From the NCBI GenBank assembly GCA_036272735.1, contig DATAYF010000474.1:1-18798 (forward strand): a DNA stretch of 18,798 nucleotides, read 5' to 3'. The stretch comes from Ktedonobacteraceae bacterium. Lineage in GTDB: Bacteria; Chloroflexota; Ktedonobacteria; Ktedonobacterales; Ktedonobacteraceae. The notes below the pieces were generated by a model, which worked only from the letters and a program-made list of their open reading frames with translations, was not told the origin of the DNA and made no database searches. Shown here one piece after another: positions 1-18,798 of the stretch (its first letter is position 1; each line of letters opens with the position of its first letter). Position numbers and translations under genes: made by a program.

Positions 1-1
1 C

Positions 2-3732: not shown

Positions 3733-3748
3733 GCCAGGACGACCAGCC

Positions 3749-3785
3749 GCGAGGGACGGTTCCCTTTGCGGGGGTCATCCCTCGC
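3749..3785 (+). terminator. GC-rich hairpin immediately downstream of the lipoate ligase stop. Possible terminator or insulator; it lacks a T-run.
   Basis: GCGAGGGA (3749-3756) pairs with TCCCTCGC (3778-3785), a perfect 8-bp stem. The loop contains CCC...GGG. It is followed by AGGTTGTCTCCC, not T-rich. Confidence 0.3.
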
Positions 3786-3803
3786 AGGTTGTCTCCCACA
3801 ACA

Positions 3804-3832
3804 TTGCACCAATTTTACAGGTGCGGTACAAT
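3804..3832 (+). promoter_or_regulatory. Sigma70-type promoter for the GlcG-like operon
   Basis: TTGCAC (3804-3809), a 17-nt spacer, then TACAAT (3827-3832). This predicts a leader of roughly 180 nt before the GTG start at 4024. Confidence 0.55.
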
Positions 3833-4023
3833 GTGCGCAATACAGTGAGGTTCCGCTACAAAGCAACAGGTATTATCATCCGATGCCCGGCGTGCATTCA
3901 TCTGAACGGAAAAACATATTAGCGGACACCAATTGGCTGTGATCTGGGGCCTGACGAGAGGCAGAGTTTTATTCCTACCACCACTATGTTTGTTTTTTAG
4001 ACAAAAGGAAGGTAGTTTTCTGG

Positions 4024-4698: not shown

Positions 4699-5468
4699 GC
4701 CAGGAACAAAGAGAAATTCGTAGACGAGCAAGACGTACAGCTAACGCCCAGCGTAACCGACCAACGCTCGTCACCGCCAAAGATAGCGAGCAGCAAACGT
4801 CGGCCTTCGAGTCCTACGAAACCACTACGGCAACCGTCGATCAGGAGCCAGAACAGCCTATAGAGGTAACAGAGGCCAAAGAGAAGCCGAAAGTTCGTCG
4901 TGGCTTCTTCTTGACCACTGGGAAGAAGGATGCAGCAGCAGGCGAGAAGGACGAGGTTGCGCAGGAGCGACTGGCCCGTGCGACGCGCGGCAAAAGTGAG
5001 CTGGAAGCTAAACAGGAGTCAGTCGCCAAAAAGCCAGCGGCGGCCCGTACGCCCACCAAAGGTGGATTTAAGACCCGCTACATCGTCGGCATGGCGCTCT
5101 ACCTGCTGTGTGCCAACTTTGTCGGCTCCTTCGAGGTACAGGGTCTGCGTTCGGCTGGCCTGGACAGGGTGTTGACCACATTCAACCTCTTCGGTGGCAA
5201 GATGGTTGTTAGCACATCGACGATAGCATTTATTGCTACGCTGGTCATCCTCCTGATCTTGTTGGCGAAGTTCGACCTGATCCCCAGCAGCCTCGGTATG
5301 GGCATGAATACAGCGCGGCCCGTGAGCAAGACTGGTAGCAGTGAGGCAACGCCCGGAGTGCCAGCGCCAAAGTTTACCCAGCCAGCGGTGCGCCAGGGCG
5401 TGGCAGGTGAACACGACGATCTCTATCAAGAGTATCGCTCGAATCAACGCCGCAGCAAGAAAAAATAA
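4695..5468 (+). CDS. Hypothetical protein: highly charged disordered N-terminal region (~135 aa) followed by 1-2 predicted transmembrane helices
   Basis: Start ATG overlaps the upstream stop (ATGA at 4695-4698), indicating translational coupling. A K/R/E-rich N-terminus is followed by hydrophobic segments IVGMALYLLCANFVG and STIAFIATLVILLILLA. No family is recognised. Confidence 0.55.
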   Translation: MSQEQREIRRRARRTANAQRNRPTLVTAKDSEQQTSAFESYETTTATVDQEPEQPIEVTEAKEKPKVRRGFFLTTGKKDAAAGEKDEVAQERLARATRGKSELEAKQESVAKKPAAARTPTKGGFKTRYIVGMALYLLCANFVGSFEVQGLRSAGLDRVLTTFNLFGGKMVVSTSTIAFIATLVILLILLAKFDLIPSSLGMGMNTARPVSKTGSSEATPGVPAPKFTQPAVRQGVAGEHDDLYQEYRSNQRRSKKK

Positions 5469-5478
5469 GAGCACAGCA

Positions 5479-5522
5479 TAAAAGCAGCAGAGCATCATAA
5501 CCAGGATGCCCTGCTGCTTTTG
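5479..5522. terminator. Bidirectional intrinsic terminator between convergent genes
   Basis: AAAGCAGCAG (5481-5490) pairs with CTGCTGCTTT (5511-5520), with inner GCATC/GATGC pairing. The stem is flanked by A-run and T-run sequence on both sides. Confidence 0.65.
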
Positions 5523-5548
5523 TCGTCTTACCCCATCATGCGCACAGC

Positions 5549-8017
5549 TTATTTGAGCCTCTTGAAATCGATAGCGGCTGTTCCCAGGCCGTGAGCAACG
5601 ATGGTCTGTGGATCACCGGGCAGGATATCGAGCATGTTATCGTCCCACGAGACATTCGCGTCCGCGGAGAGTAGGACACCTTTAGCGGGCCGTACAGCCG
5701 AGATAATGATGGTATCATCCTCGCGTGCAAGCTTGATTTCAGGATCGGGTATATCCAGGTACTTGAACGGTTCAGGCCAGAGCGCGGTACGCGCCAGCGC
5801 GGCCCCGTCTTTCAGCAAGCGTGCATTAATAACCAACTGTTTGTTTCGCGTGTATGGCACTGTTCCCAATTCAGTGGCCTGGTTAGGCAACAGGGTTACA
5901 TGGCGTGTTTCTTCCCCGACGCATTCCCCTTGCAACGTCCACGTGCGTAGCTCTACATCGGCTTCCAGTGCCGTTAGCGTGCCGTTGACAGCCCAGAGTT
6001 CAGCCGTATCTTGCTGCCCTTGAACGAGACCGAGCGCGAACGATGCCAGCGCACGTTTGATGGTATAGTACGCGGCCTTGGGGTGCAGCTCATAGTCGAC
6101 ATAGGCCCAGCTTACGACCGGCCAGCAATCGTTAATCTGCCAGACCAAAGCTCCGGCACTGTATTCACGCTGAGGACCAGCCCAACGCCGTCGCCAGCCA
6201 CGAATGCCACTGACCAGCGCCTCGGATTGAACCAATTGCGATTTGTATACGTAGTCTGCCAGATCCACGGGATAGCGCACGTTCTCGATCAGATAATGCC
6301 CAAGACGTTCAGGACCGCCCCCGGCTTTATTATGAAAATCGAGGGTGCTACTTTGCGGATAGCGTTCGCTTTGTGGTGTGAAAGCTTCGATCATTTTCAG
6401 ATCAGGAAAGGCCTGCATGCCAAATTCGCTCACAAAGCGCCCCGGAAATGTATCGTACTGCTGATAGGAGGCCATTTGCCCGTGCCAGACCGACCAGACG
6501 TGCTGGTCACCAAGCGTAAGATCGTTCGCATCGCTGCCAGCGTAGGGACTGCCAGGCCAGTATGGGCGCGTTGGATCGAGTTGTGCGCAGGCCGTGGGTA
6601 AGAGCCGTTCGTAGAGCGTGCGACCAGGGAAGGCTGTCTGTGTGAAATCACCATCAAACGCGGAATCGTAGGTCCCAAGCGAGCCCGCGACGAGATAATC
6701 CTCATTGTTGCCACTCCATACGACCAACGAAGGATGGTGGCGCAGACGACGTATATTGGCTTCAGCCTCAGCCTGAACACTGGCCTGAAACTGCTCGTGC
6801 GCGGGATACATACCGCAGGCAAACATAAAGTCCTGCCACACCAACAAACCAAGCTCATCACAGAGCGCGTAAAAAATGTCCTCTTCATAAATACCACCAC
6901 CCCAGACGCGCAACATGGTCAGGTTGCCCTCGGCCGCGAGTTGTAGCCAGGCCCGGTAGCGCTCAGGTGTGGCCCTGGACAAAAAGGAATCGGCGGGAAT
7001 CCAGTTCGCCCCACCACAGAAAATGGGGGTATTGTTGATCTCGAAGAAGAATGATGTCCCTTCTTGATCGACGAGGGCTTGCTGTACCAGGCGCAAACGG
7101 CGCAGCCCCAGGCGTTCTTCTGCACGATCCAGCGTTTCGCCGTCTATCACCAGCGTTGTTTCTAGACGGTAGAGGGGCTGCTCGCCATAGCCACGCGGCC
7201 ACCAGAGTTCGGGTTGAGCCAGCGTGAACGTATGCTGAAGGATGGGCTCGGTGGCTGGTAAGGTATGCTCGGCTACCCGCTTTCCGGCGGCTGAGAAGAG
7301 GCACAGACGAAGCATAAGATTGGAGGACAGCGTAGCCTGCGCGCTTGCCAGTTGCACCTGCACGGGGAGCGCCGCGCTGCTGAGATCCTCGCTGACCTCT
7401 ACCGGACAGTGCACATCAGCGATACGGGCTGTAAAGGTTTCCAGGCGTACAGAGCGCCACAGACCGGCGGTTATAAAAGTCGGCCCCCAGTCCCACCCAT
7501 AGTGATACTGAGCCTTGCGTACATACAGGCGACTCGCATCGCCATTCCAGGCTGCCAGTGCTCCATACTGGGTTTCGAGCTCTTTGCCACGGCGCATGGC
7601 CGATTCAAACAAGATACGTAGCTCATTCTGGCCGGGCTGTAACAGGGAGGCAACGCGCACGCGATAGGGTACGAACATATTGTCACTGCACAAAATCTGC
7701 ATGCCATTGAGCCAGACGGTGGCGAAAGTATCCAGGCCATCGAAACAAAGCTCGGTTGTTTCATCTCGTGCGAAATCTGCGGGCAAGCTAAACTGGCAGC
7801 GGTACAACCAATCGGCCTCACCGATCCATTGCAGTTCCTTTTCGTTCTGACCGTAGAAGGGGTCGGCGATGCGACCGGCAGCCAGCAGATCCATATGAAT
7901 ACTACCGGGAACAGTCGCCGGAAGCCAATCGCCAGCGGAAGCGAAGGCATCCTCTAACGTTTGTGTTGCGGACCGCTGTTTGCATTGCCACTGTTGAGAA
8001 AGATGCAAGTGTTGCAT
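5549..8017 (-). CDS. Glycoside hydrolase family 2 beta-mannosidase
   Basis: 822 aa. The N-terminal ...WLPATVPGSIHMDLLAAGRIADPFYGQNE... and internal ...WSGNNED..., ...NEFP.../...VSEFGMQAFP... regions are typical of GH2 beta-mannosidase (ManB/CsxA-like) sugar-binding and TIM-barrel domains. Confidence 0.85.
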   Translation of the reverse strand: MQHLHLSQQWQCKQRSATQTLEDAFASAGDWLPATVPGSIHMDLLAAGRIADPFYGQNEKELQWIGEADWLYRCQFSLPADFARDETTELCFDGLDTFATVWLNGMQILCSDNMFVPYRVRVASLLQPGQNELRILFESAMRRGKELETQYGALAAWNGDASRLYVRKAQYHYGWDWGPTFITAGLWRSVRLETFTARIADVHCPVEVSEDLSSAALPVQVQLASAQATLSSNLMLRLCLFSAAGKRVAEHTLPATEPILQHTFTLAQPELWWPRGYGEQPLYRLETTLVIDGETLDRAEERLGLRRLRLVQQALVDQEGTSFFFEINNTPIFCGGANWIPADSFLSRATPERYRAWLQLAAEGNLTMLRVWGGGIYEEDIFYALCDELGLLVWQDFMFACGMYPAHEQFQASVQAEAEANIRRLRHHPSLVVWSGNNEDYLVAGSLGTYDSAFDGDFTQTAFPGRTLYERLLPTACAQLDPTRPYWPGSPYAGSDANDLTLGDQHVWSVWHGQMASYQQYDTFPGRFVSEFGMQAFPDLKMIEAFTPQSERYPQSSTLDFHNKAGGGPERLGHYLIENVRYPVDLADYVYKSQLVQSEALVSGIRGWRRRWAGPQREYSAGALVWQINDCWPVVSWAYVDYELHPKAAYYTIKRALASFALGLVQGQQDTAELWAVNGTLTALEADVELRTWTLQGECVGEETRHVTLLPNQATELGTVPYTRNKQLVINARLLKDGAALARTALWPEPFKYLDIPDPEIKLAREDDTIIISAVRPAKGVLLSADANVSWDDNMLDILPGDPQTIVAHGLGTAAIDFKRLK

Positions 8018-8194
8018 AACAGACTAATTTTGCTCTCTTTCGTTCATGAATTTTGTTAATGCGATGGGCACGTTTCTCCAAGCAGGGTCCAGGGGCGGTA
8101 GCCCCTGGCGGGGTGTGGGGTGTCCCCACCGGCTCTTTCTCCTTGCCGCCGAAGGTGGCGAAACGAACGTGCTATCAGCATAGCAGTATCGCAA

Positions 8195-8208
8195 CCATTG
8201 CGCAATGG
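8195..8208. promoter_or_regulatory. Perfect 14-bp palindrome CCATTGCGCAATGG. Candidate transcription-factor operator in the divergent mannosidase/DAHP-synthase intergenic region.
   Basis: Exact dyad symmetry with no spacer, about 180 bp upstream of the mannosidase start and about 135 bp upstream of the DAHP synthase promoter -35 element. Confidence 0.35.
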
Positions 8209-8285
8209 GAATTGTAGAGGATGCATGTAACACATCAACGTTTGGCAGCAAATACTATTTTGCGCCTCGTGTATAGTAAATAAGG

Positions 8286-8308
8286 GTTTGGAATTCGTAT
8301 TTCCAAAC
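8286..8308. promoter_or_regulatory. Inverted repeat GTTTGGAA-n7-TTCCAAAC. Candidate operator or activator site just upstream of the DAHP synthase promoter.
   Basis: Perfect 8-bp arms with a 7-bp spacer, centred about 36 bp upstream of the -35 hexamer at 8333. Confidence 0.35.
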
Positions 8309-8332
8309 GTCCTAAACGCGTAGCTTCCCCTC

Positions 8333-8361
8333 TTGACAGATAGGGACAAGCTACTTATAAT
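8333..8361 (+). promoter_or_regulatory. Perfect-consensus sigma70-type promoter (TTGACA-17-TATAAT) driving the leader and DAHP synthase
   Basis: TTGACA at 8333-8338, exactly 17 nt of spacer, then TATAAT at 8356-8361. Confidence 0.7.
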
Positions 8362-8404
8362 TTGTAATAGTAAGCAAGAAATTTTTCGAAGAGAATACAC
8401 AACA

Positions 8405-8476
8405 ATGCACAGCACAAAGTATAACCAACAATTAAATCACTTTTACTTTTATTATTGGTTTAGCCCTCCAGCATGA
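8405..8476 (+). CDS. Candidate aromatic-amino-acid leader peptide (23 aa): MHSTKYNQQLNHFYFYYWFSPPA
   Basis: ATG at 8405 lies 10 nt after the purine-rich GAAGAGAA. Codons 13-19 (8441-8461) are TTT TAC TTT TAT TAT TGG TTT, which is seven consecutive Phe/Tyr/Trp codons. Stop TGA at 8474-8476 lies inside the 5' arm of the downstream hairpin. The ORF is too short to appear in the ORF track. Confidence 0.6.
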   Translation: MHSTKYNQQLNHFYFYYWFSPPA

Positions 8477-8556
8477 TGGTGGGCCCTTTGGGCTGTGCAA
8501 AAAAAGACCACCAGCGTGCTGGAGAAGCAGAGGAAAAAAACCTCTGCTTTTTTGTT
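8466..8556 (+). terminator. Leader RNA structure: a long imperfect hairpin (8466-8524) followed immediately by an intrinsic terminator (8525-8556), about 40 nt upstream of the DAHP synthase start. This is a candidate attenuator.
   Basis: CTCCAGCA (8466-8473) pairs with TGCTGGAG (8517-8524), and TGGTGG (8477-8482) pairs with CCACCA (8508-8513). Then AAGCAGAGG (8525-8533), loop AAAAAAA, and CCTCTGCTT (8541-8549) are followed by a T-run TTTTTT (8548-8553). No + strand gene lies upstream that this terminator could serve. Confidence 0.6.
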
Positions 8557-8593
8557 TCCCAAAAATAAAGCAAGAAATTGAGAGGACCAGGCC

Positions 8594-9667
8594 ATGATTA
8601 TTACGATTAGTAAGACTGCTACCAACGATGAACGTGCTCAACTGATGATGTTATTATCGCGCATAATGGGTCGGCAAAGACCGATGGCGACCCTGCATAT
8701 GCGCGAACACGACGTTATTGCCCTCGACCTGCCCCTGGATATCGCCACCGAAACCATCCTCAAGCAACAAAAAGCCGTCGACACCATCCACACCCTCAAA
8801 ACTCCCTACCAACTCGTGAGCCGCGCTTTTCAGCAAGAAGATACCAGCATCCTTATCGGCGCAACCAGCGATAGTGCGCCTGTTACTCTTGGTGGATCGT
8901 CCGCATTTCCTGTCATCATGGCTGGTCCCTGTGCGGTCGAACATCGTGAGCAGTTGTTGGAGGCGGCTCGCGGCGTGAAGGCGGCTGGCGCACATATGTT
9001 ACGCGGAGGAGCGTACAAGCCACGCACGTCGCCCTACCAGTTCCAGGGTCTGGGGATCGAGGGTCTGCGTCTATTGGCGGAAGCGCGCGCCGAAACAGGG
9101 TTGCCGATTATTACCGAAGTCATGGAGCCAGCGCTGGTGGAAACGGTGGCTGAATACGCCGATGTGTTGCAGATTGGGGCACGCAATGTGCAGAATTTCC
9201 CGCTCTTGCAGGCGGCCGGACGAAACAGCAAGCGGCTTCCGGTGGTATTGAAACGTGGTTGGTCCTCAACTATCGAAGAATGGCTGTCGGCAGCCGAGTA
9301 CATCGTCGCGGCCGGAAATCCCAACGTTATTTTGTGCGAGCGTGGCATTCGTAGCTATGATCCACAGACGCGCAACGTCCTCGACCTCACCTGTGTTCCC
9401 TTGCTGCACGAGTTGACCCATTTGCCAGTCATTGTGGACCCCAGCCATGCCACCGGCAAGCGTTCGTTGGTGCCGCCCGTGTCGCGTGCAAGCATCGCCG
9501 CTGGTGCCCAGGGACTGATTATCGAAGTGCATCCCGATCCCGCCCACGCGCTCTGTGACGGCAAGCAATCGATCACGCCAGCAGAACTCCAAAAAGTTGT
9601 ACGCGAGGCCAATATGCTCACAGAAATGATCAAAGGGGATATACCACAGTTGACGCCAGTGATGTAG
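8594..9667 (+). CDS. 3-deoxy-7-phosphoheptulonate (DAHP) synthase, type I-beta, with an N-terminal ferredoxin-like/ACT-type regulatory domain (Thermotoga maritima-like architecture)
   Basis: 357 aa. The catalytic core (...IMAGPCAVEHREQLLE...LRGGAYKPRTSPYQFQGLG...IITEVM...IGARNVQNF...LKRG...ILCERGIR...VIVDPSH...IIEVHPDPAHALCDGKQS...) aligns closely with T. maritima DAHPS/KDO8PS-family enzymes. An ~90-aa N-terminal extension precedes the barrel. Confidence 0.9.
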   Translation: MIITISKTATNDERAQLMMLLSRIMGRQRPMATLHMREHDVIALDLPLDIATETILKQQKAVDTIHTLKTPYQLVSRAFQQEDTSILIGATSDSAPVTLGGSSAFPVIMAGPCAVEHREQLLEAARGVKAAGAHMLRGGAYKPRTSPYQFQGLGIEGLRLLAEARAETGLPIITEVMEPALVETVAEYADVLQIGARNVQNFPLLQAAGRNSKRLPVVLKRGWSSTIEEWLSAAEYIVAAGNPNVILCERGIRSYDPQTRNVLDLTCVPLLHELTHLPVIVDPSHATGKRSLVPPVSRASIAAGAQGLIIEVHPDPAHALCDGKQSITPAELQKVVREANMLTEMIKGDIPQLTPVM

Positions 9668-9711
9668 TACGACCCAACCTGGTCTGGTACAGTTCATTTT
9701 TTGCGCTAGAG

Positions 9712-9752
9712 GAACCGAGACGGAGACAAACTTCGTCTCGGTTCTTTATTTT
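9712..9752 (+). terminator. Intrinsic terminator of the DAHP synthase gene
   Basis: GAACCGAGACG (9712-9722) pairs with CGTCTCGGTTC (9734-9744), a perfect 11-bp stem. It is followed by TTTATTTT. Confidence 0.8.
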
Positions 9753-9867
9753 GTATGGAAAAGCACGTCAAGTATGATGCATATAGATGAACCACAAAGT
9801 ATAAAAAATGCCGCATTTGCATGACTTTTACATTGCCCTGAGTCCTCCTCCCACGCCTTTCTATCAC

Positions 9868-9908
9868 CCCAAATGGTAGCGCATAACCCCCGAATGGTAG
9901 TGTATAAT
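9868..9908 (+). promoter_or_regulatory. Tandem direct repeats (CCCaAATGGTAGcGcATAA / CCCgAATGGTAGtGtATAA, 21-bp period) overlapping a TATAAT -10 element (9903-9908) upstream of the secreted-protein gene
   Basis: Two ~19-bp near-identical copies start at ~9868 and ~9889. The second copy ends in TATAAT, about 125 nt upstream of the ATG at 10035. Confidence 0.4.
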
Positions 9909-10034
9909 TATGATCGGTACCCATCTATTCATATTCTTCTCGCACGAAGCGAGATCCTCCAAGGTTTTGTCTAGCACTAGCAAGGCGAAGCCAGTCTCTT
10001 TGTATGCGATGTATGTGAAAGGAAGGTCACTCGT

Positions 10035-11747
10035 ATGCACTTCTCCCTTCCCGCAATGGGAAAACACCTCTGCAAAGTCGCTGGGATGGCGGTGTTTCTC
10101 AGCCTCTTGCTTACAGGAAGTTTCTTTCTACACGTGCCTATCTCTCAGGCCACGGGCCTGGCGCAACAGAGCCATCAGCAGGCCACCATTTATACCAGTG
10201 CCACCAAAGGTACGCTTGCCCCATTTGGTACTGCCGATCCTCGCCATCCTCCGGCCTCAGCAGCCGTGACCGGGGTTCCAAAGATCAAACATATTTCGAA
10301 GGGGGTGCGCCCCATTCCCAGCATCGCTCGGGCGTCCACCGCGCCTGGGCAGGCGCGTGCTTCCGGGCTTGCGCTGCACACTGGCCGGATCTTACAGAAT
10401 TTCAATGGAGTTAGCAGCCTGGATAGCGAGGTCACGAACTTTAATGCTGAATTCGAGCCGCCAGACCAGGGGCTCTGCGTTGGCAATGGCTTCGTCGTGG
10501 AAGCGGTGAACTCAGCTTTCACGATCTATCGGACCAATGGTACAGCGGTCTTGGGTCCGCTGAACGTCAATGTGCTTTTTGACGAAGGGCTCAAAGAGTT
10601 TACCAGCGATCCTCGCTGCTACTTCGATAAGTCAACCAACACCTGGGTCGCAATCATTCTCTACATTCGTAGTGATAATGCGGAGGCGCGCACCGACATT
10701 GCGGTCAATCACAGTGGTGATCCAACAACCCCCTGGACGGTCTATCATCTGGAGGCAACCGACGATGGGAGCGGTGGGATGCCAAACCACGCTGGATGTC
10801 CCTGTCTGGGAGATCAGCCGCTGCTGGGCCTTGACCAGGAGAACGTCTATATCAGCACTAACGAGTTTCCCATTGTCGCGAATGGCTTCAATGGGGCGCA
10901 GATCTATGCCATCTCGAAGCAGCAGCTTTTTGGTCTTTCGTCCCAGGTTCATTTTGTGCATTTTGACAACTTGAATATCGGGGGCGCAGTGGCTGCCTCA
11001 GTTCAGCCAGCAACTGCAAACGACAAAGCTGACGCGGGCTTCTTCATGAATTCGCTGGATCCCTTTGGTACCTCTGATAATCGTATCGGCATCTGGGCGC
11101 TAACCAACCGTCACGAGGTCAGCAAAGGAGGGGTTCCAATACTCTCCAGTATTGTCGTTACCTCGGAACTCTATGGCGTTCCGCCCCCAGCCATCCAGAA
11201 GGGAAACACCCGCAAGCTGGACGCAGGGGATGACCGCATGCAGCAGGTCCAATTTATCAATGGCGATCTCTGGGGCGCGTTGGATACAGTCATCACAATC
11301 CCGAATGATAGCGCGTCGCGGGCTGGCATTGCCTGGTTCCAGGTGCGTCCATCCATTCGCCATGAGCTGATCAGTGGACCGGAAATTGAGTATCAGGGTT
11401 ACGTTGCTTCGTCGGGGAACTATGTGCTCTACCCGGCGATCCAGGCGGGGCCGGATCATAGCGCGGCAATCGTCTTCACGTTCAGCGGAGCTAACAACTT
11501 CCCCAGCCCTGCCTACGCGGTAATGCAAGGTGGGATGCATGCTTTTGGCGCGATTACGCTAGCTGCTGATGGCACTGGGCCGTATGTGAATGGCACCCGT
11601 TGGGGCGACTATTCATACGCGACGCTTGATCCTGACCATAACCATTTCTGGCTTGCAACCGAGTATATTCCCCCGGTGAGCAGCCAGACAACGGATGGCG
11701 CTGCCAACTGGGGAACACGCGTCTTCGAGGTCGATGGGCACTCCTAG
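10035..11747 (+). CDS. Secreted hypothetical protein (570 aa) with an N-terminal signal peptide. No family recognised.
   Basis: GGAAGG RBS 8 nt upstream of the ATG. The N-terminus has a K-containing n-region followed by the hydrophobic stretch MAVFLSLLLTGSFFLHVPISQA. The rest shows no recognisable catalytic motifs. Alternative start at M17 (10083). Confidence 0.6.
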   Translation: MHFSLPAMGKHLCKVAGMAVFLSLLLTGSFFLHVPISQATGLAQQSHQQATIYTSATKGTLAPFGTADPRHPPASAAVTGVPKIKHISKGVRPIPSIARASTAPGQARASGLALHTGRILQNFNGVSSLDSEVTNFNAEFEPPDQGLCVGNGFVVEAVNSAFTIYRTNGTAVLGPLNVNVLFDEGLKEFTSDPRCYFDKSTNTWVAIILYIRSDNAEARTDIAVNHSGDPTTPWTVYHLEATDDGSGGMPNHAGCPCLGDQPLLGLDQENVYISTNEFPIVANGFNGAQIYAISKQQLFGLSSQVHFVHFDNLNIGGAVAASVQPATANDKADAGFFMNSLDPFGTSDNRIGIWALTNRHEVSKGGVPILSSIVVTSELYGVPPPAIQKGNTRKLDAGDDRMQQVQFINGDLWGALDTVITIPNDSASRAGIAWFQVRPSIRHELISGPEIEYQGYVASSGNYVLYPAIQAGPDHSAAIVFTFSGANNFPSPAYAVMQGGMHAFGAITLAADGTGPYVNGTRWGDYSYATLDPDHNHFWLATEYIPPVSSQTTDGAANWGTRVFEVDGHS

Positions 11748-11754
11748 TTCTAAC

Positions 11755-11801
11755 GCTTCAGCCGTGAGACCTCTCACGGCTGAAGCATCCCTTTCTTCTC
11801 C
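11755..11801 (+). terminator. Intrinsic terminator of the secreted-protein gene
   Basis: GCTTCAGCCGTGAGA (11755-11769) pairs with TCTCACGGCTGAAGC (11772-11786), a near-perfect 13-15 bp stem. It is followed by the pyrimidine/T-rich ATCCCTTTCTTCTCC. Confidence 0.65.
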
Positions 11802-12141
11802 GGAGCTTTTGAACCGCCTCCCCATAAGAATCTCTAGCAAAGTATGACTGAAAATGAATTTAAATGGTAAAATCTACCTTAGCAACAAAAATGTTGTATA
11901 GCTGTAATAGAAAGAAGTAAAAAAAGCACAGAACACGATGCTTTCTTTTAGCCCAAGAATAGAGCCTCACACCTGCCTCACCTTTTAGTCCTCAGTGGGT
12001 AGCGCCACGGTTCCTGCGGCAATCTGGACTACGCCTATCGACTCACCTATGGTTGTATGATATACTTGCCGTAATGTGGCAAGAGAAATCAGTATCGTCA
12101 GTGGGCAGAGCCCAAGCAAAGGCTTTGAGGTAGGTAACGCT

Positions 12142-12714
12142 ATGCCAGTAAGAATTATAATTGCAGATGACGAAGCCATACAGCGTATGGACTTAAAAGA
12201 TGTACTCATCAAACAGGGATATCTTGTGGTTGGAGAGGCTGGCGATGGCGTGAGTGCCATCAACCTGGCGCGTGAACTTCGACCAGACCTGGTCATTATG
12301 GACATTCGTATGCCCGATATGGACGGCATTGCCGCCGCCGAAACGTTGACAGAAGAAAAGCTTGCACCAGTGTTGTTGCTCACAGCCTTCGGGGATCAGC
12401 CATTAGTCGAACGTGCCAAAGAGGCCGGGGTCGTCAATTACATCGTGAAACCGCTGCGTGAGAGTGAAGTCACTCCCGCCATCGAAGTGGCCCTGGCGCG
12501 CTACAATGAGTTTCGTGGCCTTGAAGAGAAAAATCGTTCACTCACCGATCAGCTTGAGACGCGTAAGATTGTTGAGCGGGCGAAGGGTCTTATGATGCAA
12601 AAGCAAGGCTTATCCGAACAAGAGGCGTTCCGCAAAATCCAGAAGGCCAGCATGAACAATCGCAAATCTATGCGCGAAGTAGCAGAAGCTATCTTATTAA
12701 CCGACGAAATGTAG
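12142..12714 (+). CDS. Response regulator with a C-terminal ANTAR RNA-binding domain (PdtaR/AmiR/NasT-like)
   Basis: Preferred start is the ATG at 12142 with the GAGGTAGG RBS. The ORF-track start at 12076 is less likely. The receiver domain (RIIIADDEAIQRMDLKDVL...PDLVIMDIRMPDMDGI...LLLTAF...) and ANTAR motif (...LETRKIVERAKGLMMQKQGLSEQEAFRKIQKASMNNRKSMREVAEAIL) are close to mycobacterial PdtaR. Confidence 0.85.
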   Translation: MPVRIIIADDEAIQRMDLKDVLIKQGYLVVGEAGDGVSAINLARELRPDLVIMDIRMPDMDGIAAAETLTEEKLAPVLLLTAFGDQPLVERAKEAGVVNYIVKPLRESEVTPAIEVALARYNEFRGLEEKNRSLTDQLETRKIVERAKGLMMQKQGLSEQEAFRKIQKASMNNRKSMREVAEAILLTDEM

Positions 12715-12726
12715 GTGAAAACTGAC

Positions 12727-12757
12727 AGGATGCGGCAACGAGGCTTCATCCTTTTTT
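12727..12757 (+). terminator. Weak hairpin plus T-run between the ANTAR regulator gene and ricT. It could be a terminator or an ANTAR-controlled attenuator.
   Basis: AGGATG (12727-12732) pairs with CATCCT (12747-12752), separated by a 14-nt loop, then TTTTT (12753-12757). A TATAAT at 12766-12771 follows. Confidence 0.35.
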
Positions 12758-12792
12758 CATCTCAGTATAATGCCTAATAGATAGAGAAGTAT

Positions 12793-13806
12793 ATGTCACT
12801 GGCGACAAAGGATCTTGAGAAAACTATTCATATCGTCGGCATTCGTTTTCGTCCCGCCGGGCGCATCTACTACTTTGATCCTGTAGGGCAGATGTTTAAT
12901 AACGGCCAATATGTAATTGTGGAGACGGTGCGCGGCGTGGAGGCAGGGCGGGTGGTGATCGCGGCAAAACGGGTTGCGGAAAGCGAGCTGAGCGATCCCC
13001 TGAAGCCAGTTCTGCGCCTGGCGAGCGAAGACGAGCTGCGCACTATGCTCTCTTTTAAGAGCAAGGAAAAAGACGCGTTGGTCCGGTGCCATGAACGTAT
13101 TCAGTATCACCAGCTTCCGATGAAGCTGGTTGAGACCGAATATACGTTCGATGGAAGTCGTCTGACGTTCTATTTTACCGCGGAGGAACGGGTAGATTTT
13201 CGCGCCCTCGTGCGTGATCTTGCCGCGACCTTTCGTACTCGTATCGAATTGCGGCAGATAGGCGCTCGCGACCAGGCGAAGCTACAGGGCGGTATTGGCC
13301 CTTGTGGGAAGACGCTGTGTTGTAGCTCCTGGATCACCGACTTTGGTATCGTCTCTATAAAAATGGCGAAGGAGCAGGGACTGCCTCTCAATCCAACCAA
13401 GATTTCCGGTGTGTGTGGTCGCTTGATGTGCTGCCTCTCTTATGAGAATGAGAACTATATTCAGGCGAAGCGGCAAATGCCACAAATCGGCGCGTTCCTG
13501 AATACGCCCAGCGGATCAGGTAAAGTGGTGGCGGTGAACGTCCCCAAGAATTCGGTTGATGTCATATTGGAAAGTGGCGTCACCATCCAGGTGCCAGTCG
13601 AGGAAGAGCAGAACACGCAGTCCAGCAGTAGTTGTAATAGTTGTGGAAGCGGCACGAATTGTAGCTGCTCGAATGGTGGCCCCTGCACCTGTGGCGCGAA
13701 AAAAAGCCCCTCCACCACGAGCGCTCCGGCCAGCATCCCCAAAGGTGGTTGCTGTGTTTCGTGTAGTCTTAATAAGCAAAATCAGGCACCAAAAGCATCA
13801 AAATAA
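12793..13806 (+). CDS. ricT: PSP1-domain protein RicT (YaaT-like; regulatory iron-sulfur complex subunit / 'stage 0 sporulation protein') with an extra ~60-aa Cys-rich C-terminal tail
   Basis: There is block-wise near-identity to B. subtilis YaaT: VGIRF..AG.IYYFDP, VIVETVRGVE.G.VVIA, FYFTAEERVDFR.LV.DLA.TFRTRIELRQIG.RD.AK..GGIGPCG..LCCS, VSIKMAK.Q.L.LNPTKISG.CGRLMCCL.YEN. The C-terminal SSSSCNSCGSGTNCSCSNGGPCTCGAKK...GGCCVSCS is absent from YaaT. Confidence 0.9.
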   Translation: MSLATKDLEKTIHIVGIRFRPAGRIYYFDPVGQMFNNGQYVIVETVRGVEAGRVVIAAKRVAESELSDPLKPVLRLASEDELRTMLSFKSKEKDALVRCHERIQYHQLPMKLVETEYTFDGSRLTFYFTAEERVDFRALVRDLAATFRTRIELRQIGARDQAKLQGGIGPCGKTLCCSSWITDFGIVSIKMAKEQGLPLNPTKISGVCGRLMCCLSYENENYIQAKRQMPQIGAFLNTPSGSGKVVAVNVPKNSVDVILESGVTIQVPVEEEQNTQSSSSCNSCGSGTNCSCSNGGPCTCGAKKSPSTTSAPASIPKGGCCVSCSLNKQNQAPKASK

Positions 13807-13843
13807 CATTGTGAAGCTGAGATGAGAGGCAGGTGTGTGACGT

Positions 13844-15370
13844 ATGTCTTCAGATGGGAAGGACCCTGGTGCAATCTGGCAAGGACCCTCTAAACCGGAC
13901 TGGGGCCAGTCCGAACAACAAGCACAGATGGACCAGCAACTTGAATTCGCAGATCTCTCGCAGCAGCAGGCAGACGCTCCTCATGTTTTCTCGCTTATCG
14001 ACGACGATCTGGCGGACGAGGCGCTACCGCCGGACGCCAATTGGCAGGAGCGGCTCAAGCGCTACGCACGCCAGGCTATGCCGGTGTGGCTGCCCTTACT
14101 CCTCGGTGTACTGACCAGCATTTTTGTCATCCCTTTCATTATCCAGGGCCGCGCCAGCATCTCACTTGATAACCTCTGGTTGATCGTCACCGTCATTGTG
14201 GTAGTGACGCTGTCACAAATGGCCGCGCTGTTCTACACGAGCACCGCTACGAGCCAGGATGACGCCGGTACTGGCAATATTTTGCGAATCCCGGCCATCG
14301 TCGGGGGCATCCTCCTCTTTGTGCTCAGCGGCGTGTTCGCTCTTGCAGGCTCCACGGTAGGCTTGATTACCCTCGTTATCGTGATCGCACTCTTCGTCGT
14401 CTTATTCCGCTTATATGTTCACCCCGTGCCAGAAGGTTTCGTCGATATCGTTTACACCTTAGGCAAGTATAGTCGCACGCTCTACGCGGGGCCAAATGTG
14501 CTGCTGCCCTGGGAAAAGGTGGCGCATCATCTCAAAGTCAGCTCGATCCAGTGGTTGTGCCCCCTGCAACGGGTACAGCTTTCGCGTGCAGAGGATGTCC
14601 TGTTGCGTGCGACCATCTCGTATCGCCTGTTGCCGAGGGACGCCTACCTGGCGGTAACGCGAGTTGATCGCTGGGAAGAGGGCCTGCGCGAACTATTTAT
14701 TACCTGCGTGCAGACGATTGCGACGGCGTTTGCCCCTGAAGATTTTATCTCCTGGCCTGAAGGCTTACACACGCCACCTTCGGTCAATGAGAACGTTGAT
14801 AGTGTTGTGCGCCGAGATCGTATCAATAACTACTTGTATAACCAGATGAGCGATAAAGCGGCGCTATGGGGCATTATCGTGCAAGGGGTGGGTGTGCGCG
14901 ACATCATGCTCGCGCCGCACGACGCAGTTATTGATGCTGAAACGCTCTTTGCGTCTCCGGATCCCCCGGCTGCTCCACAACCACAGTCGCAAATGGCAAA
15001 CACGCGCCCACCGGCAGAACCTGCCGCCACTACTCTCCCGGAGAAAAACCTTAGTGGAGCGGGAGCGCCAAAGACGAATAACGTGCCCAAGGCCTCGGAG
15101 AACGCCATGGTGGTTGAAAGCTCCGCGCGCGCTATGCCGCAACAGCCAGGAATTGTGAATGAAGAGATTTTGTCAAAAGCCTACAAAGAGGTGCAGAATG
15201 GCAGAATTACAGACCCCCAAACTATCCGCGAGATAGCCGCCAGGTTCCAGGCCATCGCCGACGATCCCCAGGCTAGCCAAAAGGTCAACTTCGATGCGGA
15301 GCGAGGCGCGGCAAACCTGCAAGAACAAGCACGTAAGTACGAGGAGTCCGCAAGCAAGCAGCGTAAATAA
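13844..15370 (+). CDS. Membrane protein with an acidic N-terminal region, four predicted TM helices, a divergent SPFH/band-7 (stomatin/HflK/C/flotillin-like) domain, and a long P/Q/A-rich disordered C-terminus
   Basis: TM segments lie at about aa 70-190. The segment VPEGFVDIVYTLGKYSRTLYAGPNVLLPWEKV...SIQWLCPLQRVQLSRAEDVLLRATISYRLLPRDAYLAV matches the SPFH core pattern VPxG...GK..RTL.PG...P....V...Q.L.....TKD...V.VDAV..YRV.DP. It lies 37 nt after ricT. Confidence 0.65.
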   Translation: MSSDGKDPGAIWQGPSKPDWGQSEQQAQMDQQLEFADLSQQQADAPHVFSLIDDDLADEALPPDANWQERLKRYARQAMPVWLPLLLGVLTSIFVIPFIIQGRASISLDNLWLIVTVIVVVTLSQMAALFYTSTATSQDDAGTGNILRIPAIVGGILLFVLSGVFALAGSTVGLITLVIVIALFVVLFRLYVHPVPEGFVDIVYTLGKYSRTLYAGPNVLLPWEKVAHHLKVSSIQWLCPLQRVQLSRAEDVLLRATISYRLLPRDAYLAVTRVDRWEEGLRELFITCVQTIATAFAPEDFISWPEGLHTPPSVNENVDSVVRRDRINNYLYNQMSDKAALWGIIVQGVGVRDIMLAPHDAVIDAETLFASPDPPAAPQPQSQMANTRPPAEPAATTLPEKNLSGAGAPKTNNVPKASENAMVVESSARAMPQQPGIVNEEILSKAYKEVQNGRITDPQTIREIAARFQAIADDPQASQKVNFDAERGAANLQEQARKYEESASKQRK

Positions 15371-15615
15371 TGAGAGTGGTATCCGTAAGTACTAGGTTAG
15401 GATGCAGAGACGTTGAGCGTGGTTAAGGTGCTAACAGAGCCATAAGACATTTAGGCTAAATTCCCCCCTTGCTAAGCCCTTGAGAAGCAACATGGTATAC
15501 AATAGCATGTGTAGAAAGCAATCGATGTGACGATATACATTTCTAGGCAACGACCGTCGCATGAGGGGATTGCAACCTCCCAAGATCACGGAGGTTTCCA
15601 TGAGAGAGGGCGACC

Positions 15616-15945
15616 ATGAGAGCACCACGCGTAACAGCAGCTATTTTTGTGCTTTTGCTCATCGGGATCGTCTCATTAGGCGCAATTGGGCTGGTGGACT
15701 GGATTGGACCGGTAGAGGCCCACGGTAACACGGTTGAACACGCAAGAGGCACCATTCTACAGCAAAGCAATGGAACGAGCTTCACGTTACTGACCAAAAG
15801 TGGGAAGCAACTGACGTTCCAGTGTACCAGCAATTGTGACGTGCAACTTCAGCATATCAAACGGCACCAGACCGAACATGCGTTTACCGACGTTTATTAC
15901 GTGCCAGGTTCCAACCATACGCTGATTGCTGTAGATGTAGATTGA
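15616..15945 (+). CDS. Small (109 aa) secreted or membrane-anchored hypothetical protein
   Basis: GAGAGAGGG RBS 6 nt upstream. N-terminal signal/anchor MRAPRVTAAIFVLLLIGIVSLGAIGLV. A CTSNC Cys pair is present. No terminator before the next gene 58 nt downstream. Confidence 0.55.
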   Translation: MRAPRVTAAIFVLLLIGIVSLGAIGLVDWIGPVEAHGNTVEHARGTILQQSNGTSFTLLTKSGKQLTFQCTSNCDVQLQHIKRHQTEHAFTDVYYVPGSNHTLIAVDVD

Positions 15946-16003
15946 TCAGAAGGGTCCTAAGGCAACAGGAAAAATAGTAACTTAGAGAGTCAGGCGTCAA
16001 GGG

Positions 16004-17869
16004 ATGAGTAGTTGGCAAAATCAGACCAGAGAAGCAGCACCTATGCAGATAAGCAACGCCCCGTTGGATAGCGCGGACATCGTCATTGTTGGCAATGGCA
16101 TAGCAGGACTCACGGCAGCGTTAGAAGCGCGTGCCCTGGACCCTGAAAAGCGCATCGTCATCATTACGAGCCAGATCCATCCAACGATCAATACTCCTGC
16201 CCTCAAGCAGTTTGCTATTGCGAAACTGAGCAGGGAGCAATTGTTGGCGTATCCAGCGGGCACGGAGCGCGAACGGCGTATCCATGTTGTCAATGCACAT
16301 GTAGAGGAGATTCACGCGCGTAGCAAATATGTGGCTCTGCGTGGGAGTCGCGGCTTTGGTTATGGTTCACTACTTATCGCGACCGGCAGCCAGCCGCAGG
16401 GCATATCGGACCAGATACCAGGCCACGAGTTCGATGGTGTGCTAACGTTGCACTGCTTGCAGGAATATCTTGATTTACGCAGGCGACTAAGCGAGGTTAG
16501 TGAAGCCGTGGTCATTGGTGGGGGGGTACATGCCATCGAGACGGTCATGGGTCTGCGCCACTGGGGCATACGCGTACACTGGCTCATTCGCGGCTCAACC
16601 TTTATGCGCAACGTGTTGGACGAGTCGGCTTCGAGTATTATTTTGGAACACGTACGCCGTCAGGGGGTCGTAATCCACACGGAGACCGAGATCGTCGGCA
16701 TCGTAGGCCGGGTGGGGGGGGTTGCAGGCGTCATCACCAACCAGCAGCAGATGCTTCCTTGCCAGATTGTGCTGGCATGCACGGGTACCAAACCGGTCAC
16801 GACCCTGGCCGAGCATTGTAGCGTGCCCATTCAGCAAAAAAACGGGATTATCGTTGACGATAAGCTGCGCAGCAGTGTCCGCGATATTTATGCTGCTGGT
16901 GACGTTGCCGCCCTGCTTAATCCACAAACCGGTTGCTATGAAACTCGTGCCCAGTGGTACGCGGCAACCTTCCAGGGACGCATAGCGGGCGCGATGCTCG
17001 TGGGTGATAAAGAGCTGGCACGGCAACCATTCGGTGTGTCCTGGCATGCTACGCACCTGGGTGTGCTCTCTATGCTCACTGTTGGCGAACCACTCAACCA
17101 GAGCAACAAAATCGTTACGCTCACAGATACCAGTCAGGGTGGATACCGTCGTTTGGCAATCGCCAACGACCGTCTAGTTGGTTACCTCTCGCTTGGGCAC
17201 AAACAATGTGATAGCCTGGCGATTAAGCGCATCATCGACGAGGGGCATTCTATCCGGGGCATCACGAAGTCGCTCCTGAAGGGCAACTTTGACGCGCGGC
17301 GTTATCTTTCACAGATACGCTCGAAAGCAGCGGCCGGTATTATTAGTAGTGGGAAGCTGCCACCACTTGCGTCCAACCAACCCTCGGAGATAGAACTGCG
17401 TCCGGTAAGTGGGCATCTGTCCCATGGCTCAACGCGGCGCGATGTGCAATCGCAGCCTGGCATTATTCAGGAACCAGCGCGCGAAGTAGTCTATAACGAG
17501 GACGATATTAATCCTTTTACCGGCAATCTGCCAGCATTTGCACAGCCTATCACCGGCGAGTTTGCAATAGACAACAGTTTGATAGAAGATACCGGAGAGC
17601 AGGATAGTCTGGATGATATGCCGAGCCCCTTTACTGGCAATCTGCCATCATTCGACGAGACAGATACCGACCCGACCATCTCGTATACAGAGCAAGATGC
17701 CAATAGAGCGCGTAACCTCTGGGCGTATAGCGATGCTACGCCAGCCAGCCAGCAGAAAAAACCAGAAGAGATAGCGCCAGCGAGGAAGCAAGATATGCCG
17801 AGCAGTACGAAGCGCAACCTCTGGTCGTACACGCCCAGGCCGGATCAGAGGAAAAAGGGGGGACACTAA
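16004..17869 (+). CDS. FAD/NAD(P)-binding pyridine-nucleotide-disulfide-type oxidoreductase (ferredoxin/rubredoxin-reductase-like), ~430-aa catalytic part plus a ~190-aa disordered C-terminal tail carrying internal repeats
   Basis: Dinucleotide-binding motifs are present: DIVIVGNGIAGLTAALEA (FAD), VVIGGGVHAIETVMGL (NAD(P)), YAAGDVAA. The tail contains duplicated NPFTGNLPAF / SPFTGNLPSF and RNLWAYSDATP / RNLWSYTPRP. Start is 16004; alternative 16043. Confidence 0.8.
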   Translation: MSSWQNQTREAAPMQISNAPLDSADIVIVGNGIAGLTAALEARALDPEKRIVIITSQIHPTINTPALKQFAIAKLSREQLLAYPAGTERERRIHVVNAHVEEIHARSKYVALRGSRGFGYGSLLIATGSQPQGISDQIPGHEFDGVLTLHCLQEYLDLRRRLSEVSEAVVIGGGVHAIETVMGLRHWGIRVHWLIRGSTFMRNVLDESASSIILEHVRRQGVVIHTETEIVGIVGRVGGVAGVITNQQQMLPCQIVLACTGTKPVTTLAEHCSVPIQQKNGIIVDDKLRSSVRDIYAAGDVAALLNPQTGCYETRAQWYAATFQGRIAGAMLVGDKELARQPFGVSWHATHLGVLSMLTVGEPLNQSNKIVTLTDTSQGGYRRLAIANDRLVGYLSLGHKQCDSLAIKRIIDEGHSIRGITKSLLKGNFDARRYLSQIRSKAAAGIISSGKLPPLASNQPSEIELRPVSGHLSHGSTRRDVQSQPGIIQEPAREVVYNEDDINPFTGNLPAFAQPITGEFAIDNSLIEDTGEQDSLDDMPSPFTGNLPSFDETDTDPTISYTEQDANRARNLWAYSDATPASQQKKPEEIAPARKQDMPSSTKRNLWSYTPRPDQRKKGGH

Positions 17870-18181
17870 ATGCTCAAGATGTTCAAACCCGAACCAGCGC
17901 TGATGCATAGAACAGCGCCCCAGGTGATGCAGGAGATCCGCGCCTGCATTGGTTGCAATGAATGCTTGATTGCCTGTCCTGCGCTGGGTGAGCCAATCAC
18001 CATCGATGTGTTGAATCACCAGACGATCTCTGGCATGGTTTCGCCCTCGGTTGCACGTTTTGCGCAGGCGTGCTATCAATGCGGGGCGTGCGTCGATCCA
18101 TGCCCGGTCGGCCTGCACCGCGATGCCATGATGATGTGGCTGAAGGTGCGCATGCGGCGTGCAGAGCAGGGAGAAGAGTAG
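17870..18181 (+). CDS. 2[4Fe-4S] dicluster ferredoxin-like protein
   Basis: Two CxxCxxCxxxCP motifs: CIGCNECLIACP and CYQCGACVDPCP. The ATG immediately follows the TAA of the upstream reductase gene (TAAATG). Confidence 0.8.
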   Translation: MLKMFKPEPALMHRTAPQVMQEIRACIGCNECLIACPALGEPITIDVLNHQTISGMVSPSVARFAQACYQCGACVDPCPVGLHRDAMMMWLKVRMRRAEQGEE

Positions 18182-18182
18182 T

Positions 18183-18798
18183 ATGCAAATCGCGGAGGAA
18201 AAACGCGGCGGCCGTAAAAATAAAAGTATGATGGTCTGGGTCGTCACCGTTGGTATCATTCTCGTGGCGGTTGCCATTGAGTTCTGGTATAGCCGCGTCA
18301 GCAACGATCTTTCGCCTGATAGCCTGCTCGGTTTTGCTTTTGCCATCAGTGGAACCATTTTCCTGCTGCTGGCGGCAATCCGTTATAGTATGCATCGCCG
18401 CTCACGCACAAACGGCTCAGGGCTGCTCAACAAGTCGTTACACTGGCACATTGGCTTCGCCATGATCGCCTTCGCCCTGCTCCTATTGCACTCGTTAGGT
18501 AACTTCAATCCGCGTTCAGGCACGTATGCGCTCTTTGCCATGATTGCCATGGTCGTTAGTGGCGTGATTGGCAAGGCACTGGATAAGGTGATGCCGCGCC
18601 TGATTACCAGAGAGGTCAGTAAGGCGTTGACGGCGCAGGGGGATGATCGACTGGAAGAAATCACGCAGGAACTGCACACCATGGTTGAGTATAGTACGCA
18701 GGAACTGCAAGGTTTTTCCGTTGCACAAAAAAACGGCAGTTCCAAGCTCCCCACAAAACCTCAATCGAACGAGCCGCTATTACCATTGACGCAACGCG
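18183..18798 (+). CDS. Polytopic membrane protein (at least 4 TM helices, His residues flanking TM3), 3'-truncated by the window edge. Possible membrane redox partner of the reductase/ferredoxin pair.
   Basis: The frame is open from the ATG at 18183 (GGGAGAAG RBS, 1 nt after the ferredoxin stop) to the window end. It is not in the ORF track because it has no stop. Hydrophobic segments: VWVVTVGIILVAVAI, LLGFAFAISGTIFLLLAAI, HWHIGFAMIAFALLLLH, YALFAMIAMVVSGVIG. Confidence 0.6.
   Translation, partial: MQIAEEKRGGRKNKSMMVWVVTVGIILVAVAIEFWYSRVSNDLSPDSLLGFAFAISGTIFLLLAAIRYSMHRRSRTNGSGLLNKSLHWHIGFAMIAFALLLLHSLGNFNPRSGTYALFAMIAMVVSGVIGKALDKVMPRLITREVSKALTAQGDDRLEEITQELHTMVEYSTQELQGFSVAQKNGSSKLPTKPQSNEPLLPLTQR

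Follow-up and report, generated by a model that had tools for sequence, protein, structure and literature searches.

An 18,798-nucleotide (nt) stretch of DNA from a Ktedonobacteraceae bacterium (contig DATAYF010000474.1, positions 1 to 18,798; the whole stretch is referred to as the window) was analysed for three consecutive genes that encode an ANTAR response regulator, the PSP1-family iron-sulfur (Fe-S) protein RicT and an atypical membrane protein of the SPFH/Band-7 family, and for a hairpin, H1, that separates the first two genes. The comparisons described below indicated that the trio is very probably a conserved operon and that H1 is a structured element which the regulator may recognise. 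The elements of the locus are as follows.

12038..12066, plus strand: putative sigma-70-type promoter of the operon (TCGACT, 17-nt spacer, TATACT, with TG upstream; promoter scan)
12142..12714, plus strand: regulator gene, encoding a PdtaR-type response regulator of 190 amino acids (aa) with receiver (REC) and ANTAR domains (Pfam Response_reg, ANTAR)
12727..12757, plus strand: hairpin H1 (5' arm 12727-12736, hexaloop AACGAG 12737-12742, 3' arm 12743-12752, T-run 12752-12757)
12773..12789, plus strand: motif of the putative ricT ribosome-binding region, CCTAATAGATAGAGAAG in the window (consensus (G)TCTAG(T/C)AA(A/G)GAT(C/A)G)
12793..13806, plus strand: ricT, encoding a PSP1 family Fe-S protein of 337 aa (NCBIfam RicT_YaaT_fam)
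13844..15370, plus strand: gene for a divergent SPFH/Band-7 protein of 508 aa (Pfam Band_7)

The positions of the three genes in the initial annotation, which had been made from the letters of the sequence, were all borne out by Pfam and NCBIfam matches and, for the regulator, by the length of homologues. Its remark that the window holds no cognate kinase and no ricA or ricF was also upheld among the larger open reading frames (ORFs), in which family scans detected neither a histidine kinase nor a RicA/RicF-type family.

The regulator matched the Pfam families Response_reg (E = 2e-27) and ANTAR (E = 5.6e-22; 77.7 bits against a cut-off of 27.3). Its start was placed at the ATG at 12142, and not at the GTG at 12076, because homologues are 190 aa long. 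The closest solved relatives were Rv1626/PdtaR of Mycobacterium tuberculosis (1s8n, E = 8e-57) and then EutV (6wsh, E = 1e-44), and several close homologues are named PdtaR by the Joint Genome Institute (JGI). The receiver signature D9/D10, D54, T81 and K103 aligned with those of Rv1626, EutV and CheY, with the phospho-acceptor Asp54 falling on the EutV aspartate that carries BeF3. Using a numbering offset between the two proteins inferred from this Asp54 match, R141, K148 and F163 aligned to Arg142, Lys149 and Tyr164 of EutV, the substitution of phenylalanine for tyrosine being shared with Rv1626. In EutV, these three residues hold the flipped-out G4 of the hexaloop (PMC8934654).

RicT was identified by matches to PSP1 (E = 3e-34, 117.5 bits) and to RicT_YaaT_fam (295.7 bits against a cut-off of 70, residues 40-250). 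An exact CX4CCX30CX4CC motif was present (C171, C176, C177, C208, C213 and C214; nt 13303-13434), the spacing of which ligates [4Fe-4S] clusters in RicT (Adusei-Danso et al.; PMC6751060), and this motif was found in 82 of 84 RicT homologues of the class. The Cys-rich tail that had been ascribed to this RicT (PSP1) protein was confirmed as a Cys/Gly-rich segment with nine cysteines (residues 281-324, nt 13633-13764). Most of the 84 homologues have 8 to 10 cysteines within the last 70 residues; there is no such tail in RicT of Clostridia or Fusobacteria, and only three cysteines occur in one distant lineage (loci L053/L054). The tail usually ends in a CGSCG-x-KK-like motif that is kept across the Ktedonobacteria. 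It could form an extra metal or Fe-S site. No solved relative of RicT was found by sequence.

The third protein matched Band_7 at 57.7 bits against a cut-off of 23.6, and an AlphaFold model of the single chain was built with 28 homologues (mean predicted local distance difference test [pLDDT] score of 76, exceeding 90 in the transmembrane [TM] and SPFH parts). The hydropathy profile and the model indicated a disordered N-terminus followed by four long hydrophobic TM helices (residues about 67-192; nt 14081-14419 for residues ~80-192), which were conserved in the family alignment. The initial annotation was thus right in placing an atypical SPFH protein with four N-terminal TM helices 37 nt after ricT. 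The SPFH domain (residues 192-358, nt 14417-14917) was modelled with confidence, and Foldseek returned a probability of 1.0 for stomatin, QmcA, HflK/C, prohibitin and erlin. A long disordered tail had also been described for this protein; a disordered, Pro-rich linker does follow in the model (about residues 376-435), but the chain ends in a helical domain that is conserved in the family alignment and confidently folded (about residues 436-508, nt 15149-15367). The long coiled-coil or wall helix that can follow an SPFH domain was not seen in the single-chain model. The family is small: a search of 1.84 billion representative proteins returned 242 relatives at E ≤ 1e-3 and did not even reach generic SPFH proteins. 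The even number of TM helices and the basic residues before the first of them suggest a cytoplasmic location of the SPFH domain, where it could meet RicT. The four-TM region was considered as an NfeD-like domain and this was rejected, as no NfeD match was obtained for residues 1-195 at E up to 10; nor was NfeD found among the neighbouring genes of the loci inspected. The C-terminal helical domain also matches stand-alone proteins of 79-146 aa and proteins of other lengths, in one of which it occurs in three copies, and its sole Pfam match is a weak one to TPR_TmcB (E = 0.012). This distribution suggests that the domain is a mobile module.

The adjacency of the three genes, from which a functional module had been proposed in the initial annotation, was found across the Ktedonobacteria and in a deep sister lineage, and was missing from loci of Clostridia and Fusobacteria. 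In a genome scan with RicT, the regulator, RicT and SPFH genes followed one another on one strand in 31/31 Ktedonobacteria loci, including those of Ktedonobacter, Ktedonosporobacter, Ktedonospora, Tengunoibacter, Dictyobacter and Thermogemmatispora. Searching metagenomes with the regulator added 80 contigs. When these were pooled with the genome-scan loci, ricT lay 3' of the regulator gene wherever the sequence left at least 600 nt for it (105 of 105 loci), and the SPFH gene was present wherever more than 2.3 kb was available (80 of 80), although these loci share ancestry and the counts are not independent events. Class-wide identity was 85 to 92% for the regulator, 70 to 86% for RicT and 27 to 45% for the SPFH protein, and the gap between ricT and the SPFH gene was mostly 21 to 82 nt (37 nt from the ricT stop in the window). 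The trio was also kept in all three loci of a deep lineage labelled Ktedonobacterales, which was found via a profile of the most distant SPFH relatives; identities there were 73 to 75% (regulator), 69 to 73% (RicT) and 26 to 27% (SPFH), with a regulator-ricT gap of 10 to 13 nt.

The surroundings of the trio were variable. DAHP synthase lies 5' of the regulator gene in most of the class and is replaced by LplA/CorA in the deep lineage, and downstream neighbours differ between genomes. Among 16 Clostridia/Fusobacteria RicT loci from the same genome scan, neither partner was found, and one Clostridium locus had the classical context of holB-ricT-methyltransferase-rsmI. Three distant regulators departed from the pattern. 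One, 73% identical (the L053/L054 lineage), is followed by RicT and then by an MFS transporter in place of the SPFH gene. Two others lack RicT, with a convergent valyl-tRNA synthetase (ValRS) gene following one of them and the other (L051, 75% identical) lying directly 3' of a GAF_PdtaS histidine kinase gene. Directly upstream of the regulator-RicT pair of L053/L054, a DtxR/IdeR-type iron-dependent repressor and an Nramp transporter were observed (4333-6494), which hints loosely that the pair may work in connection with metal or iron. Overall, the gene order is very probably that of a conserved operon.

Transcription signals were consistent with this arrangement. A block of the form (C)TCGACTC-N-TATG(A/G)TATACT was detected 75 to 110 nt 5' of the regulator start in most related loci. 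Because this promoter-like block is conserved and the regulator-ricT spacers are very short in many lineages, the genes were taken as a three-gene operon; at the level of sequence, these features support a reading of the promoter, regulator, ricT and SPFH gene as one transcription unit (window 12038-15370). A separate promoter-like site was located 3' of the SPFH gene (15480-15508; promoter scan). The predicted 5' end of the regulator mRNA (window 12066-12095) carries a small hairpin, CUUGCC-GUAAUGU-GGCAAG, right after the -10 box; related loci have a hairpin with a different stem sequence and a loop rich in AUGUA(C)GUAG, and the structure may be a 5'-terminal stabiliser.

A (G)UCUAG(U/C)AA(A/G)GAU motif occurs 8 to 13 nt before the ricT AUG in nearly all leader types. 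It is probably a degenerate AAGGA Shine-Dalgarno region that lies partly inside a weak small hairpin. Two other assignments were rejected: the conserved CTAGTAAAGAT motif as the -10 box of a leaderless ricT promoter, because its distance from the ATG is not constant (8 to 13 nt) and AAGGA stands in its place in other lineages, which fits a ribosome-binding region better; and this motif as a second ANTAR loop (AAAGAU), for which no conserved closing stem was found.

H1 folds as AGGAUGCGGC-AACGAG-GCUUCAUCCU at 12727-12752 and is followed by U6, which extends to 12757. Because the folding energy of this region does not exceed that of shuffled sequences (z = -0.86), the reality of H1 rests on comparative evidence. 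The spacer between the regulator gene and ricT ranged from 11 to about 410 nt, and three forms were distinguished among 92 unique leaders: short spacers of 11 to 28 nt (about 27), spacers with H1 (about 31) and spacers with a nested structure that has a CCUGACCA loop (at least 5). H1 was present in about a third of lineages, including both named orders (Thermogemmatispora as well as Ktedonobacter, Ktedonosporobacter and Tengunoibacter), and is probably old in the class and repeatedly lost. Comparison of 25 distinct copies, in which pairing was 85% (a value inflated by the stem filter with which the copies were chosen), detected compensatory changes at 11 of 12 pairs. The covariation score of 0.56, compared to 0.29 in shuffles, was matched by 0 of 500 shuffles, and shifted registers scored far lower. 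RNAalifold, run on 12 leaders with no imposed structure, predicted this helix and no other.

A covariance model of H1 hit the window only at 12723-12756 (31.9 bits; next best, 12.6). Over about 1.07 Mb of loci, it recovered equivalent sites only, plus a hairpin in the spacer between DAHP synthase and regulator of L030; save for this Thermogemmatispora hairpin, no other copies were found there at E below 0.05. The loop was the most constant part, with G4 and the C-G closing pair invariant in 25/25 copies and A1 present in 23. When every leader of more than 35 nt was folded without bias, the dominant hairpin carried a hexaloop in 28, and 18 of these had both A1 and G4, compared to about 2 expected by composition. 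These loci also contain 103 terminator-like hairpins at other places, among which loop sizes of 3 to 8 nt were about equally common; only 11 had hexaloops and 2 were of the A1/G4 type, one of the two lying between DAHP synthase and the regulator promoter of a Thermogemmatispora-type locus. Hairpins of the strict form C[A/G]NNGNNG numbered 53 in 1.67 Mb (both strands), versus 14 unique copies in the short spacers. These results indicated that H1 is, in all likelihood, a real structured element under selection.

Two further structures were noted in or near this spacer. In Thermogemmatispora-type genomes, the terminator between DAHP synthase and the regulator promoter is a strong one of the form GGGGTGC-[A/G]ATG[A/G][G/A]-GCGCCC followed by T7-8, and because it carries a hexaloop of the H1 kind, the regulator gene is flanked on both sides by such hairpins in these loci. 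Its positions are as follows.

L010, 5044-5063: terminator between DAHP synthase and regulator
L017, 4729-4750: terminator between DAHP synthase and regulator
L018, ~4697: terminator between DAHP synthase and regulator
L030, 4653-4686: terminator between DAHP synthase and regulator

The other is a second, unrelated structured leader that occupies the regulator-ricT spacer of L059, L067, L071 (a 118-nt leader), L073 and L078. An outer helix, GGUGAGUUG.../...GGCUCACC, surrounds a hairpin with the conserved CCUGACCA loop and is followed by CCCAGGGGUCUAGCAAGGAUCG; no Rfam match was obtained for this structure.

The RNA substrates of EutV, NasR and AmiR consist of two short hairpins whose hexaloops need A1 and G4 and in which the closing pairs matter (Ramesh et al.; PMC3369931). 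Structural work has since indicated that the ANTAR dimer contacts one hexaloop at a time, and its authors redefined the minimal site as one hexaloop and urged that such sites be sought (Walshe et al. 2022; PMC8934654). The explanation of the locus that we prefer combines the conserved operon with a lineage-variable, single-hexaloop site that tunes ricT-SPFH expression; taken whole, it stands about as good a chance of being right as of being wrong. The regulator encoded just 5' would bind H1 in its own polycistronic transcript as a single-hexaloop site, and H1, which is followed by a short U/C-rich stretch (U6 in the window), would act as a leaky attenuator. Phosphorylated regulator on H1 would set how much transcription or expression continues into ricT and the SPFH gene, either by read-through or by a stronger stop; both directions are compatible with a hexaloop that caps the terminator-like stem itself and not a competing antiterminator. 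H1 would be a feedback device added onto an otherwise tightly coupled operon. RicT, an Fe-S RNA-processing factor, would be held at or work at the membrane via a cytoplasm-facing SPFH scaffold, and the orphan regulator would couple the RicT/SPFH machinery to a cytoplasmic signal. Judged from the loop sequence and the aligned G4-contacting residues, binding of H1 by this particular regulator is a tentative proposal, with somewhat less than an even chance.

Several observations weigh against this explanation. A descriptor scan of both strands for the canonical dual hexaloop gave 3 matches in the window, compared to 6.5 expected by chance, none of them near the operon. Rfam returned nothing relevant in the window (E up to 10) or in eight related loci (E up to 1), and no second hexaloop hairpin was found by descriptor scan or by RNAalifold on 12 leaders. 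A candidate second hairpin in the 3' coding end of the regulator gene was rejected, being only a GC-NGAA-GC tetraloop forced by Ala-Glu-Ala codons. The textbook competition between antiterminator and terminator is ruled out because the hexaloop caps the terminator-like stem itself, and no alternative conserved pairing that would give mutually exclusive folds was found. H1 is absent from about two thirds of the unique leaders, and yet the regulator is 85 to 92% identical; loop position 1 is G and not A in 2 of the 25 copies; and most copies have weak U/C tails and no good U-run, although such tails are as compatible with a protein-assisted stop as with leaky termination. The shared ancestry of the loci and the stem filter, mentioned above, belong with these points. 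The ANTAR-controlled hairpin of the initial annotation therefore survives in part: the hairpin is conserved and covarying and has an A1/G4 hexaloop, but the canonical dual-hairpin geometry is absent, and scanning for this motif, which had not been recognised by eye, did not find it in the operon. H1 is not classed as a canonical ANTAR antiterminator.

The most serious competing explanation accepts the operon but takes H1 as an ordinary intrinsic terminator or 3'-end stabiliser that lowers ricT-SPFH expression by a fixed amount and is not bound by the regulator, the true RNA targets of which would be elsewhere in the genome. Such a role would account for the U/C-rich tail after H1 (U6 in the window), for the dispensability of H1 in many lineages and for its departure from the dual-hairpin geometry of characterised ANTAR antiterminators, and it accords with mycobacterial PdtaR, the targets of which are distant and which a small RNA titrates (PMC8131098; PMC11537054). 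It accounts poorly for the loop. Terminators of the same loci have loops of 3 to 8 nt with no preference and A1/G4 is rare among them, whereas loop positions 1 and 4 and the closing pair of H1 are fixed. Because the loop stays fixed while the sequence of the stem turns over, recognition of the loop itself is indicated, and an ordinary terminator is considered unlikely, if by no means negligible. A role for H1 as a processing or stability determinant, cleaved in the manner of RicT/RNase Y substrates and giving differing half-lives to the regulator and ricT-SPFH segments as in the Ric-dependent maturation of cggR-gapA, draws on the activities of Bacillus RicT, which acts with RNase Y in the maturation of operon mRNA and controls ricF transcript stability (PMC10470536; PMC6751060). 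In its favour, H1 lies exactly at a gene boundary and a different structured element occupies the same place in other lineages. The A1/G4 hexaloop, however, is the known determinant for ANTAR proteins and is not known as one for RNase Y, and we give this role a slim chance.

It may also be asked whether the gene order reflects descent only, the regulator being a generic orphan, RicT a housekeeping protein and the SPFH protein an unrelated membrane scaffold, each of which acts independently. The loci all belong to a single class or to close relatives of it, distant PdtaR-like regulators (72 to 75% identical) stand beside PdtaS or ValRS with no RicT, one lineage has regulator and RicT with an MFS transporter and not SPFH, and Clostridia keep ricT in the holB context. 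Against this, the flanks have been reshuffled repeatedly (DAHP synthase to LplA/CorA, changes of downstream genes, insertion of a 570-aa ORF in the window) while more than 110 loci have all retained the trio, even where the SPFH proteins are only 26% identical, and regulator-ricT spacers of often 10 to 16 nt suggest coupled expression; inheritance as the whole explanation is very improbable.

The preferred reading of H1 as a single-hexaloop site is subject to two limits. Because many lineages without H1 keep a nearly identical regulator, H1 is not the main or only target of this protein; and because the regulator gene and ricT are only 10 to 28 nt apart in many lineages without H1, H1 is a modulatory add-on and not the core of the system. 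As regards the proteins, family knowledge, the RicT-RNase Y connection (PMC10470536) and that of flotillins with RNase Y and the degradosome (PMC7492731) are compatible with a membrane-localised RNA-regulatory module, but a joint RNA-processing function of all three proteins, proposed by analogy with these systems, is doubtful. In the most far-reaching version, the trio would be a signal-responsive, membrane-anchored RNA-processing machine and an alternative to the Firmicute Y-complex, in which the regulator would replace RicA/RicF and give target specificity by hexaloop recognition, the RicT tail would supply ligands for a second Fe-S cluster in cis, the SPFH protein would anchor and organise the complex at the membrane, and H1 would serve in autoregulation and would also be the first natural ANTAR target with a single hexaloop to be known. 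This version is a long shot.

The rest of the contig encodes a tRNA-guanine transglycosylase, a lipoate-protein ligase, an HbpS-like protein and a pyridine-nucleotide-disulfide oxidoreductase, together with a GH2 mannosidase on the minus strand. DAHP synthase (window 8594-9667, plus strand) has an N-terminal extension of ~95 aa ahead of the catalytic domain. Between it and the regulator gene lies a 570-aa ORF (window 10035-11747, plus strand) with a signal-like N-terminus, for which there was no Pfam or NCBIfam match and no counterpart in any of the other loci compared; a near-perfect palindromic hairpin, CTTCAGCCGTGAGA..TCTCACGGCTGAAG, is located 3' of this ORF at 11754-11790. A 5'-truncated ISAzo13-family DDE transposase, covering profile positions 79-306 of 308, was detected at the contig end (window 14-730, plus strand).

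What is new here is the genomic association of known kinds of protein and a candidate new type of ANTAR site. To our knowledge, RicT/PSP1 proteins are widespread outside the Firmicutes with no partners or role known there, PdtaR-type regulators are conserved across several phyla with few known RNA targets, and no natural single-hexaloop ANTAR site has been characterised, although such sites were predicted by structural work. The operon offers a candidate set of RicT partners, a candidate cis target for a PdtaR-type regulator and a new SPFH architecture that is genetically linked to RNA-related proteins. The candidate pair of H1 and regulator is testable with one protein and a 34-nt RNA, and cultured strains exist (Ktedonobacter racemifer and Thermogemmatispora species). 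If the proposed links fail, a well-documented, class-specific operon of ordinary components remains.

In comparison with the sites of EutV, NasR and AmiR, H1 shares the hexanucleotide terminal loop with A1 and G4, the importance of the closing pair and the intergenic place 5' of a U-run, and the residues aligned to the G4 contacts of EutV are present in the regulator. H1 differs in being single, with a terminator-like stem of 9 to 13 bp, whereas the known sites are pairs of mini-hairpins of 3 to 5 bp that compete with a downstream terminator, and in being optional across lineages.

The comparison with RicAFT (the Y-complex) of Bacillus subtilis gave the same RicT family and an exact six-cysteine spacing. 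The ricA and ricF genes are not in the window, however, and ricT stands with an ANTAR regulator and an SPFH gene and not in the holB-ricT-yabA context of B. subtilis. The Cys/Gly-rich C-terminal tail is an addition to the protein, and we speculate that it could give in cis the ligands that RicA and RicF give in trans.

The SPFH protein resembles scaffolds of its family that are tied to RNA decay. In Staphylococcus aureus, the flotillin FloA promotes the oligomerisation and activity of RNase Y, and in Helicobacter pylori floA adjoins rhpA, which encodes the helicase of the degradosome, and promotes the formation of RNase J foci (PMC7492731). The protein described here shares this link of the SPFH family to RNA-processing proteins but has four TM helices where flotillins have one anchor or a hairpin. 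Unlike the cages of stomatin, HflK/C and flotillin, it has no long coiled-coil in the model, and its chain terminates in a small, distinct helical domain. One of the closest folds to the SPFH part is QmcA (8z5g), and the SPFH-NfeD operons (Escherichia coli QmcA-YbbJ) likewise encode a multi-TM protein combination with an SPFH domain, but the operon partner here is RicT and not NfeD.

With the PdtaS/PdtaR system of Mycobacterium (Rv3220c/Rv1626), the regulator shares the REC and ANTAR architecture and a length of about 190 to 205 aa, and in M. tuberculosis, as in the window, the regulator gene is not beside that of its kinase. We know of no linkage of the mycobacterial Rv1626 gene to ricT or to an SPFH gene, and no hairpin with an ANTAR-type loop has been described 3' of it. 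Mycobacterial PdtaR is known to bind a small RNA with several hairpins as well as a few mRNAs, and the system responds to nitric oxide (NO), copper, heme/iron and cyclic di-GMP (c-di-GMP), with some bearing on Fe-S and redox genes (PMC8131098; PMC11537054). By analogy, this connection to Fe-S and redox genes would fit loosely with an Fe-S protein, RicT, as the partner of the regulator in the Ktedonobacteria.

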